A stretch of 4,719 nt of DNA, taken from IMG/VR virus record IMGVR_UViG_2671180378_000013. One strand, given 5' to 3'. The stretch is from a virus (Duplodnaviria; Heunggongvirae; Uroviricota; Caudoviricetes). Made by a program: the position numbers. Shown one piece after another: positions 1 to 4,719 of the stretch; the first letter of the stretch is position 1; the number at the start of each line of letters is the position of its first letter.

Positions 1-3000
1 GACCCGACGCTGCCGGAGGTGTCCGGAGGTCATGGCAGGGCAGACGATATCATCGGACTGTGACCCGCCCCGGGGGGGGGATCATCCGGCGAAAAAAATG
101 ATCGCCCCGGACACCGCCCCCCCTCTCACGCAGAGAAAAAATTCCCGTTTCAGGGCAGTTAACATGTTAACTGGCTGTCCGGGCATTTTTGCGGTTTTTA
201 TCTTTATTATTCAGTTTGTTGTGCGGAAAAAATGTTAACTGGCTTTTTCAGCAAATGTTAACCAGGCAGCAGTTAACATTTGCGGCATGAGACGCCGGGA
301 AAAATGGGCTGAACCATACCCGGCTGAGTGCGTTCTGGACCCGGGAGGAGGCTGTGCTGACAACGCAAAAACGAAAATTTGCGCTGGCGCTCATGTCCGG
401 GAAAAACAAAACAGCGTCAGCCATTGCCGCTGGTTATTCGGCGAAGACCGCCAGGGTTAAAGGCTCGCAGCTGGCAAAAGATCCGGAGGTGCTTGCGTTT
501 ATAGCCCGTAAACAATGCGAGACGGTGGAGGTGGATGAGGTTCCTGTTTACCGGCAGAAAAAATCAGAGCAGGAGGATAAACCCCGTCGCCGTGAGGCGG
601 CTGCAATACCACAGCCGGACGAAAACAATCCGGAGATGCCACCGTCCGCGGTGATGTCTCCTGGTATTGAATATATGGAGGATGGTCTTCCCGATCCGGT
701 GAAAGCGATGGGGCGTCTTCTGGTGGAGAACATTAATACCGACCCCAGGCTGGCGCTGGATGCGGCTTATAAGCTGGCGCAGTTCACGCACCATAAAAAA
801 GGGGATGCCGGTAAAAAATCGGCAAAAGGTGACGCGGCGAAAAAAGCGGCTAACCGTTTTGCGGTGCCACCACCACCCCGCCTGGTGGTGAATAATGATA
901 ATGAGGGCAACGGATGATACCTGTGTGGAGCACGGCCTGCCCGGACTGGGCAGAGCGCCTGAAAAAGGGGCTGTCGATTATTCCGGCTCCGATTTATCCG
1001 GACCAGGCTGCACATGCACTGGCGATTTTTAAACAACTGCGAATTGTGGATGCACCGGGTAGCCCGACATTCGGGGAGTCCTGTGCACCGTGGGTGTTTG
1101 ACCTGGTGGCGGCCCTGTTTGGCTCCTACGATGCGCAGACCGGTGTTCGCCATATCAAGGAAGTGTTTATCCTTATCCCCAAGAAAAACAGTAAGTCCAC
1201 GCTGGCTGCGGGGATCATGATGACGGCGCTGTTACTGAACTGGCGGCAGGCGGCGGGCTACACCATTCTGGCCCCGACCGTGGAGGTGGCGGCTAACGCC
1301 TTCAACCCTGCCAGGGATATGGTACGACGGGACGATGATCTGGATGACCTCTGTCAGGTGCAGACACATATCCGGACCATCACCCATCGGGTGACGGACA
1401 CCACCCTGAAGGTGGTGGCAGCCGATCCGAATACGGTGTCCGGTATCAAGTCCGTGGGGACACTGATTGATGAACTGTGGCTGTTTGGCAAGCAGTACAA
1501 GGCGGAAGACATGCTACGTGAAGCCATCGGCGGGCTTGCCTCCCGTCCGGAAGGGTTTGTGGTGTATACGACCACCCAGTCGAATGAACCGCCCGCCGGG
1601 GTGTTCAGACAGAAACTGCAGTATGCCCGGGATGTCCGTGACGGCAAAATTCATGATCCGCACTTTCTGCCGGTGATTTTTGAGCATCCTCCTGAAATGG
1701 TGGAAAGCGGGGCTCACCTGCTGATGGAAAACCTCGCCATGGTTAACCCGAATCTCGGTTATTCGGTGGATGAGGCCTTTCTGTACCGGGAGTACCGTAA
1801 AGCCCGGGAGGCTGGTGAGGAAGCATTTCGTGGCTTCATGTCAAAACATGCCAATGTGGAAATTGGTCTTGCCCTGCGTTCTGACCGCTGGGCGGGCGCG
1901 GATTTCTGGGAGCAGCAGGGCAGGCGCGTCAGCCTGGACGATATCCTGCAGCGCGCTGATGTGGTGACGGTGGGGATTGACGGCGGGGGCCTGGATGATC
2001 TGCTGGGAATGTACGTGACTGGCCGTGACAGGGAAACCCGCGAATGGCTGGGCTGGGGCCATGCCTGGGTGCATGAAACCGCGGTGGTCAGACGGAAGAG
2101 TGAGGCATCCCGGTTTCAGGATTTTGTGGCCTGTGGAGACATGACGATTGTCCGTCGGGTCGGGGATGACACGGCGGAAGTGGCGGAGTATGTGCGTCGT
2201 ATTCATGAGGCTGAGTTACTGGAGCATATCGGTATTGACCCGTCAGGTGTGGGGCAGATTCTGGATTCACTGGCGGAAGCCGGGATCCCCGATGAGAGTG
2301 TGGTGGGGATAAGCCAGGGCTGGAAGCTGGGCGGGGCCATCAAAACCACCGAGCGCAAACTGGCTGAAGGGGTGCTGATTCACGGTGATCAGCCCCTGAT
2401 GGCCTGGTGTGTCGGTAATGCCCGGGTGGAGCCTAAAGGTAACGCCATTCTTATCACCAAACAGGCCAGCGGACGGGGAAAAATTGACCCGCTGATGGCG
2501 CTCTTCAATGCGGTGTCCCTGATGTCCCTGAATCCGGAACCGAAAAAGAAAGCGTATGAGGTTTTTTTCATATAACCCTGCTCACCCTGTAACCATCATG
2601 AACCGCTGCGGCGGTTTTTTTATTTTCAGGAGGCTGATGTGACTCTTAAACGGGCCTGTTCCCTGCTGACGGTGAAATCCTTCAGTGAGGATGAACGGGT
2701 GATCACCGGGATTGCGTCAACGCCTTCTCCGGATCGGGATGGTGACATCCTGGAGCCGGAGGGGGCGGAGTTTGGCAGTACGATCCCGTTTCTCTGGCAG
2801 CATGACCATTCCCGCCCTGTAGGCCAGTGTACGGTGCGTCGGGTCAGGGAAGGGCTGGAAATCACGGCAATGCTGGTGAAGCCGGAGCCGGGGATGCCCT
2901 CCCAGATGGCAGCCCGGCTGGATGAGGCCTGGGCTGCCATTAAGACCGGGCTGGTCAGGGGGCTTTCTGTGGGCTTCCGGCCCCATGAATACACTTATCT

Positions 3001-4719
3001 GGACGGAGGCGGACTGCATTTTCTGCGCTGGGAGCTGATGGAGGTGTCTGCCGTCACCGTGCCCGCGAATGCGGAATGCACCATCCGGACCATTAAATAT
3101 TTCGACCGCCCGTTTTCTGCCGCGTCCGGCAACCGGAAACCGGTGGTGAAAATCGCATCTTCTGCCGGCGCTTCGGCACAGTCAATAACCTCTTTTCATA
3201 AGGAAAAGTCAGCAATGAATACTGGTGAACAGATTAAAAGTTTTGAAAACAAGCGTGCGGCGCTGGCAGCCTCCCTTGAGGAGATCATGAACAAAGCCGC
3301 AGAGGAAGGCCGCACACTGGATGTGGAAGAGGAAGAGCACTACGACAACACCGCAGCGGAAATCCGTCAGGTGGATGCGCACCTGAAGCGTCTGCGTGAA
3401 CTGGAAACCAGTAAGGCCGCCACGGCACAGCCGGTGAAACAGGCCGGTAACGGGAATGTGGCCACGGTGGCTTCAGCGCCGGTGATCCGTGTTGAGCAGA
3501 AACTGGAGAAGGGGATTGGTTTCGCCCGCTTTGCCAAATCACTGGCCGCGGCTAAAGGTGTCCGCTCTGAAGCCCTGGAAGTGGCCCGTCGTCAGTATCC
3601 GGATGACAGCCGTCTGCATCATGTCCTGAAATCGGCGGTGGGGGCAGGGACCACCACGGACCCGCAGTGGGCAGGCAGCCTGTCTGAATACCAGGAATAT
3701 GCGCAGGACTTTATTGATTACCTGCGTCCGCAGACCATTATCGGGCGATTTGGTCAGGGCGGGATCCCTGCACTTCGTCAGGTGCCGTTCAATATCCGCG
3801 TGCATGCCCAGGTGTCCGGTGGTGCTGCCGGCTGGGTGGGTGAGGGTAAGGCCAGACCCCTGACGAAGTTTGATTTTGAATCCATCACCTTCAGTCATGC
3901 GAAAGTGTCGGCCATTGCGGTACTGACGGAAGAATTGATCCGTTTTTCCAGTCCGGCTGCTGATGCACTGGTCCGTAATGCGCTGGCGGAAGCGGTGGTG
4001 GCGCGTCTGGACACAGACTTTGTGGACCCGAAAAAAGCGGCGGTGGCGGATGTCTCCCCGGCGTCCATCACCCATGATGTGAAGGGCACGGCATCAACCG
4101 GTAACCCGGATGCGGATGCCGAGGCCGCGTTTGGCCAGTTTGTGACGGCAAATCTGCAGCCCACCGGTGCGGTCTGGCTGATGTCCAGCACCAATGCCCT
4201 GGCGCTGTCCATGCGTAAAAATGCGCTGGGGCAGAAGGAATATCCGGACATGACCTTGCTGGGCGGGACCTTCCAGGGGCTGCCGGTGATTGTCTCCCAG
4301 TATGTGGGTGACCAGCTGGTACTGGTGAATGCACCGGATATTTATCTGGCTGATGACGGCGGTGTGGCGGTGGATATGTCCCGTGAAGCGTCACTGGAGA
4401 TGCAGTCTGAACCGACCAGCGACAGCAGCACACCGTCACCGGTGGAACTGGTCTCCATGTTTCAGACCGGCAGCGTGGCCATCCGTGCGGAGCGCTGGAT
4501 CAACTGGCGTCGTCGCCGTACCGCGGCAGTGGCGGTGATCACCGGTGTGAACTACGGAACTGCGTCCGGTGGCTGAGTCTGATGAGGAGGGCGGGAGGCG
4601 TGCGCCCCCCGTAACAGGTTATGGCAAAGATCCGATATCTGCAGGGCACGCATGATGCCCGGGCCGGGGATATCCGCTGTCCCCTATACACATCTCCGAG
4701 CCCACGAGAACGAGGCAGA

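Follow-up and report, generated by a model that had tools for sequence, protein, structure and literature searches.

The DNA analysed here is a 4,719-nucleotide (nt) stretch from a virus of the Caudoviricetes (IMG/VR record IMGVR_UViG_2671180378_000013), referred to below in its entirety as the window. It represents the beginning of a phage late operon. Its plus strand carries an open reading frame (ORF) of 645 codons in which a prohead protease, a scaffold-like delta segment and a major capsid protein follow one another, and within which codon 193 is a candidate second start. The features of this gene, with residue positions counted from its first codon (aa, amino acids), are as follows.

2628–2633, plus strand: Shine–Dalgarno (SD) sequence of the long form, AGGAGG, 5 nt before the GTG at 2639 (duplex with the 3′ end of 16S rRNA, −10.3 kcal/mol)
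2639–4576, plus strand: fusion ORF, the end coordinate counting the stop codon
2639–3064, plus strand: S78 (HK97 gp4-type) prohead serine protease domain, aa 1–142
2801–2803: codon CAT for His55, within WQHDH (aa 53–57)
2966–2968: codon TCT for Ser110, within GLSVGF (aa 108–113)
3041–3043: codon for Glu135, an invariant residue
3065–3214, plus strand: predicted disordered linker, aa 143–192, predicted local distance difference test (pLDDT) below 50
3199–3208, plus strand: internal SD-like motif TAAGGAAAAG, AAGGA core at 3200–3204, 10 nt before the ATG at 3215 (duplex −6.2 kcal/mol)
3215–4576, plus strand: proposed nested short form comprising delta and capsid, 453 aa, 48.4 kDa, starting at Met193 (MNTGEQIKSFENKRAAL...)
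3221–3421, plus strand: delta/scaffold-like helical hairpin, aa 195–261, AlphaFold helices 195–223 and 229–261 (pLDDT 78–87)
3494–4573, plus strand: HK97-fold capsid shell domain, about aa 286–645

The ORF begins with GTG, contains no internal stop, encodes a protein with a predicted mass of 69.4 kDa and is annotated at identical coordinates in RefSeq relatives. A preliminary description, made from the sequence alone, had placed a protease, a delta-like segment and a capsid domain in this one frame without a stop and had named WQHDH and GLSVGF as the protease motifs; the frame and the positions of both motifs are as it described. The protein matches the PHROG 617 profile from end to end (E = 3.8e-259; aa 1–639 against profile positions 7–626 of 626). 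A domain search and a structure prediction, the checks that the description had proposed, likewise returned the expected parts: Peptidase_S78 at the N-terminus and Phage_capsid at the C-terminus, and a full-length AlphaFold model (pLDDT 71.5) in which a β-rich protease domain (aa 5–140) precedes the delta helices and an HK97 fold, so that a protease fold is present within residues 1–170. Outside Escherichia coli, relatives start the long form with a plain ATG behind the SD sequence GGAGG. In the window, the GTG overlaps an out-of-frame ATG-TGA ‘start-stop’ ORF (2637–2642). A role for it in attenuating the long form was considered and set aside, as it lies only 3 nt from the SD sequence and relatives have a plain ATG.

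The protease domain is recognised by Pfam Peptidase_S78 (PF04586; aa 48–151, 32.7 bits against a cut-off of 21) and by the PHROG 80 profile ‘head maturation protease’ (E = 1.4e-40). HK97 gp4 aligns with the ORF by BLASTP at 29% identity (E = 2e-8), placing His55 on His65 and Ser110 on Ser114, the catalytic residues of gp4. Across an alignment of relatives at 24–73% identity, HK97 gp4 included, His55, Ser110 and Glu135 are invariant, and the domain has the assemblin/prohead-protease fold, matching the T4 gp21 protease (PDB ID: 5jbl). The NCBIfam equivalog model TIGR01543 scored below its cut-off (44.1 bits against 59; E = 2.3e-11), and by its sequence the domain is a divergent S78 member that falls outside the naming of that equivalog. 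The low score, together with an uncharacterised ORF of 294–407 aa that follows the portal gene in this head module, would suit a degenerate protease that acts as extra scaffold only, with cleavage left to another enzyme. We consider this very improbable, given the three invariant residues, the S78 score above the gathering threshold, the fold match to T4 gp21 and the head modules examined, in which a second protease domain was not called.

The disordered linker between the protease and the delta helices and the C-terminal tails of stand-alone proteases are homologous, as seen from the alignment and a comparison of tails, and the final 12 or so residues of the linker are hypervariable and indel-rich. 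Conserved islands (AASG, PVVK and AGA-S/T-A) stand out from the disordered sequence at window positions 3110–3180 (aa 158–180). The stand-alone protease tails of relatives with separate genes have such islands in common with the linker (VVKL, AVRLL, PGASG; PVVK/VVRL), making them candidate self-cleavage or capsid-docking motifs.

The delta helices are followed by a second predicted disordered stretch (aa 263–285) and then by the shell domain. Pfam Phage_capsid (PF05065) aligns with aa 386–635 (55.5 bits, cut-off 24.2), while TIGR01554 (major_cap_HK97), which describes HK97-type capsid proteins including the delta region, aligns with aa 204–584 (80.9 bits, cut-off 27.5). Foldseek matched the shell domain to the Bxb1, D3 and HK97 capsid proteins (E from 3e-13 to 1e-9), of which Bxb1 was the best (E = 2.9e-13), and gave TM-scores, normalised by target length, of up to 0.74 against HK97 Prohead II. 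At the sequence level, the Bxb1 capsid protein was the sole match in the Protein Data Bank (E = 0.003), and BLASTP found no significant similarity between the capsid part and HK97 gp5 (E = 0.33); the two are too diverged for the residues of the HK97 Lys-Asn isopeptide cross-link to be placed. The mature capsid protein probably begins near aa 265–290, a guess drawn from the model because the disordered segment at aa 263–285 lies there and a homologue that lacks the delta domain (P0245) aligns from aa 281.

The gene is widespread. Window positions 1–4676 share 99.6% DNA identity with Stx1a- and Stx2a-converting phages, and matches to the window were obtained in 94 phage records and in 1255 of the 5426 complete E. 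coli genomes (23%), carriers holding a median of two copies and up to eight. The 645-aa ORF is present in 91 phage records at a coverage of at least 80% and in 1125 complete E. coli genomes, and its E. coli protein cluster comprises 9916 member sequences. Full-length homologues of 644–648 aa occur throughout the Enterobacterales at 73–77% identity. Further afield, 140 of the best 150 cluster representatives (50%-identity clusters, from a search space of 1.84 billion representatives) are full-length fusions at 38–54% identity. A genome scan located fused genes in α-, β- and γ-proteobacteria and in several metagenome-assembled genomes, while a second, profile-based search for homologous proteins yielded the close relatives already known and no added diversity.

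These numbers bear on whether a sequencing or assembly frameshift, or the decay of a defective prophage, merged two genes. In favour of such a merger, the window is a short contig with adapter-like sequence at its end, many of the prophages of this type in E. coli are defective, and truncated or internally deleted copies do occur (P0005, P0007–P0011). Nevertheless, the same ORF recurs across the phage records and complete genomes counted above, RefSeq annotates it as intact, full length is retained down to 38% identity in other phyla, and the catalytic residues are invariant; an artefact or pseudogene is thus effectively refuted by conservation, and we give it a negligible probability. The ORF is not an assembly error, because it recurs intact in thousands of independent assemblies. 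It is a genuine gene, serving head maturation and the capsid in long-tailed Stx prophages and other lambdoid prophages (PHROG 617). A few longer proteins were also seen (P0002, P0003, P0123 and P0132): a TerL ATPase domain is added in one (1079 aa) and a portal domain in another (784 aa), and the remaining two, each about 1090 aa long, are extended by 440 aa at the N-terminus. P0002 and P0003, each the single member of its cluster, are probably frameshift or read-through calls.

The protease–capsid architecture is itself already known, and is very common in E. coli. ORF003 of Pseudomonas phage PAJU2 is annotated ‘prohead protease fused capsid protein’, Stx phage records carry ‘major head protein/prohead protease’, actinophage papers write of a ‘capsid and protease fusion’, and such fusions have been described in thaumarchaeal proviruses (PMC6563490). 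The NCBIfam model NF045541 (scaf_prot_MCP2, ‘prohead protease/major capsid protein fusion protein’) matched the ORF only partially and well below its cut-off (aa 49–267; 52.7 bits against 525), and by sequence comparison it is the same architecture in a different sequence family. The fusion is therefore nothing new: the gene is standard and its annotation correct, and the type of prophage that carries it, which includes the Stx1- and Stx2-converting phages, is found in about one quarter of complete E. coli genomes. In describing the architecture as known from some head modules, the preliminary description agrees with PAJU2, PHROG 617 and the actinophage annotations; its further statement that fusions are far less common than separate genes fails in this lineage, where 47 of 61 scored loci are fused and 14 are split.

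An element that the preliminary description had missed lies at codon 193. The sequence there (MNTGEQIKSFENKRAAL) resembles the N-terminus of a capsid protein, with the TIGR01554 profile starting just downstream (aa 204), and two stand-alone capsid proteins (P0258 and P0267) begin at the equivalent of this residue. We collected 77 related loci and scored the 61 in which both domains were present; a degraded locus (L032) is additional to these. A start codon occupies the position aligned with Met193 in all 47 fused loci, from the Enterobacterales to α-, β- and other γ-proteobacteria. Four variants have GTG here, encoding valine while retaining the potential to start. Among the 140 fusion cluster representatives, a methionine lies within four residues of position 193 in 121 and a valine in 12. 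An SD duplex of −5 kcal/mol or stronger accompanies the internal start in 44 of the 47 fused loci (94%); the corresponding rates are 16% over all positions in frame and 18% over the remaining in-frame start codons. Many non-enteric lineages have the internal SD sequence as the strongest anywhere in the ORF, AAGGAGGG being one example, and in the cultured phage PAJU2, AGGAGG with ATG at Met197 reaches −10.8 kcal/mol, against −6.4 at the main start.

The purine motif stays at an equal distance from the start codon in other lineages, as AAGGA or the stronger AGGAGG, and is read in different codon registers: aag-gaa (KE), aaa-gga (KG), aag-gag-ggc (KEG), cag-gag-ggc (QEG) and cga-gga (RG). As both the registers and the encoded residues vary, the conservation is at the nucleotide level. 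The messenger RNA (mRNA) is also open at this point, the region from −20 to +15 costing 9.9 kcal/mol to open around ATG 3215, compared with 10.0 at the main start and 18.1 on average over the ORF; an equal degree of openness is reached at only 4.4% of in-frame positions.

Several of these observations can be set against a simpler account, in which only the 645-aa fusion is made, at one protease per capsid subunit, with the protease and delta parts excised and lost, and in which the internal SD sequence and ATG survive as a neutral relic, or Met193 persists for a structural reason. The ORF is uninterrupted and has a strong main ribosome-binding site (RBS), AGGAGG with GTG here and GGAGG with ATG in relatives. 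Internal initiation also has several points against it. The internal SD sequence in the window and other Enterobacterales is moderate (−5.3 to −6.2 kcal/mol) and weaker than the main one; that of the window ranks 95th of 617 in-frame positions, below the −10.3 kcal/mol of its main start. Met193 could be retained for structural reasons where the delta helix begins; lineages that fused recently could carry RBSs left over from frequent changes between the fused and the split state; and the related loci are phylogenetically non-independent. In the literature searched, whose coverage left out most subscription-journal papers, we found no report of a second, internally initiated product, nothing linking internal starts to prohead proteases, and nothing on the products of this gene in BP-4795, YYZ-2008, PAJU2 or FSL SP-016.

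A relic SD sequence should, however, decay in a hypervariable, indel-rich linker, whereas the start and the SD sequence are retained at the frequencies given above. The site persists even in the enterobacterial clade, which is uniformly fused and in which the identity of the fusion protein has fallen to about 57%. Substitutions at the Met193 position are GTG in all four cases in which the DNA was read, and the mRNA around ATG 3215 is unusually open. On this evidence we regard a single product as possible but doubtful. From the pattern of conservation, the gene probably yields two products, a 69-kDa protease–capsid fusion and a 48-kDa capsid precursor; the latter is probably translated alone, because the internal start and SD sequence are conserved exactly where stand-alone capsid genes begin. 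The preliminary description had expected the fusion to fix the protease-to-capsid ratio. That expectation does not hold up well, as a start codon is present at this position in every fused locus and an SD sequence in nearly all, and the capsid precursor is probably made on its own as well.

The fused loci can be compared with their split relatives. In all 14 that were scored, the capsid gene starts with ATG at the position equivalent to Met193, and the protease stop codon either overlaps this ATG (as ATGA) or lies 2–245 nt upstream. The SD sequences of the split capsid genes are no stronger than the internal sites of the fused genes (means of −6.3 and −7.5 kcal/mol, respectively). Fused and split loci are interleaved when their capsid parts are placed on a neighbour-joining tree, which requires at least seven changes of state; this would be easy to account for if translation of the capsid protein is independent whether or not the genes are fused. 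We lean slightly towards the view that the protease–capsid ‘fusions’ of this large family are nested two-product genes, in which the stop codon is an evolutionary toggle and a conserved internal RBS supplies free capsid precursor. On this view, tethering the maturation protease covalently and targeting it non-covalently would be two solutions that can replace one another. No description of protease–capsid fusions as nested two-product genes was found in the literature searched.

Overall, the explanation that best fits the locus, and which we judge fairly probable, is an equivalent of HK97 genes 4 and 5 that lacks the intervening stop codon and has two initiation sites and two products. Initiation at GTG 2639 would give the 69-kDa protein, consisting of the S78 protease, a flexible linker of 50 aa, the delta helices and the capsid part. 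Initiation at ATG 3215, behind AAGGA, would give the 48-kDa delta–capsid precursor, the counterpart of HK97 gp5, as its conservation suggests. By analogy with HK97, both forms would be built into the procapsid together by way of the capsid and delta parts, which are identical in the two, and the protease would thereby be tethered covalently inside the shell, whereas HK97 docks its protease by a C-terminal targeting tail. The His55/Ser110 protease would then remove itself, the linker and the delta domains, in agreement with the self-excision that the preliminary description had read from the fusion, leaving a mature capsid protein of about 38–40 kDa that starts near residue 265–290. With two initiation sites, the protease-to-capsid ratio would not be fixed at 1:1.

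What this adds is a family-wide prediction of an internally initiated capsid precursor. If the internal start is used, its significance is modest but has several sides: it corrects the idea that fusions impose a 1:1 stoichiometry of protease to capsid, it extends the nested protease/scaffold strategy of phage lambda and the herpesviruses to the capsid protein itself, and it accounts for the ready interconversion of fused and split arrangements. It would also bear on annotation, as every record is without a second product, and on the expression of these capsids for structural work.

The remainder of the window holds the following features.

Window start: final 63 nt of an HNH endonuclease gene
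354–917: terminase small subunit (TerS)
914–2575: terminase large subunit (TerL)
2600–2627, plus strand: putative terminator-like GC hairpin and T-run from a consensus scan, between the TerL stop codon and the RBS of the fusion gene
4621: ATG of a small downstream ORF, of which only the first bases are present

The TerS and TerL genes share a 4-nt overlap (ATGA, 914–917), the usual arrangement for translational coupling. A similar ‘gcgggtttttt’ is found in the same place, 5′ of the fusion gene, in Salmonella and other relatives, and HK97 has a putative terminator annotated directly 5′ of its protease gene, comparable with the hairpin at 2600–2627. Taking window positions 354–4576 together with the context of two related loci (L001 and L086), the gene order is TerS, TerL, protease/capsid, one or more small ORFs and portal, with the capsid gene 5′ of the portal gene. 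Antisense ORFs of 100–178 aa inside the fusion gene were considered as alternative features and rejected, having no Pfam match, and no Rfam matches were obtained in the window.

Downstream of the region that the window covers, RefSeq describes the portal of four relatives (L001 13786–16370, L002 13788–16371, L003 8140–10535 and L005 8141–10374) as ‘frameshifted’ or as two ‘portal’ ORFs. In the same region, Salmonella and other relatives have a 450-aa portal and a separate ORF of 294–347 aa, without a Pfam match, whose overlap with the portal is 4 nt. The ‘frameshifted’ annotation may reflect an unknown head gene that was mis-annotated, and not a broken portal. The final 43 bases of the window (4677–4719) have no match in Stx phage or E. 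coli records, every alignment ending at 4676. They read CTGTCCCCTATACACATCTCCGAGCCCACGAGAAC..., which resembles the Illumina Nextera transposase adapter followed by an index, and look like adapter read-through at the end of the contig.

The gene can be compared first with HK97 genes 4 and 5. The protease belongs to the same family as gp4, with the catalytic His and Ser aligned; the capsid protein carries its own scaffold in the form of a helical delta domain at the N-terminus, as in gp5; the capsid domain has the HK97 fold; and the protease coding sequence lies directly 5′ of that for the capsid. In HK97 the protease and capsid protein are indeed separate genes, as the preliminary description stated, with the stop codon 2 nt before the gp5 ATG and two proteins made, whereas the window ORF has no such stop and the protease is therefore covalently joined to the capsid subunit. 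The order of genes also differs (TerL, portal, protease, capsid in HK97; TerS, TerL, protease/capsid, small ORF, portal in the window module), and gp5 has no similarity to the capsid part that BLASTP detects, as noted above. The T4 gp21 protease (PDB ID: 5jbl) and the herpesvirus assemblins are more distant, being of a different sequence family (14% identity) and unfused to a capsid protein.

Among annotated fusions, PAJU2 ORF003 is a full-length homologue at 48% identity in a module with the same gene order as that of the window. The actinophage and NF045541 fusions belong to a different sequence family. The annotations and papers on the PAJU2, Stx phage, PHROG 617 and actinophage fusions make no mention of an internally initiated product.

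Nested genes offer the other comparison. Phage lambda C and Nu3 are a nested, in-frame protease/scaffold gene pair. In this pair and in herpesvirus UL26/UL26.5, similarly to what we propose here, a long form bears the protease at its N-terminus, and its C-terminal assembly part is also expressed separately as a short form; it is through this shared part that the protease of such pairs enters the procapsid by co-assembly. The herpesvirus short form is about 10-fold more abundant than the long form (PMC11565193). The window ORF has the anatomy of a nested pair, with a protease at the N-terminus and stand-alone homologues of the short part that start at aa 193, and, at the level of sequence, an independent initiation signal comprising a conserved SD sequence and start codon in open mRNA. 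It differs in that the shared part of the lambda and herpesvirus pairs is a separate scaffolding protein, whereas here it is the delta domain and the capsid shell protein itself, and in that herpesviruses make the short form from a separate transcript, whereas the window ORF would do so from an internal RBS.

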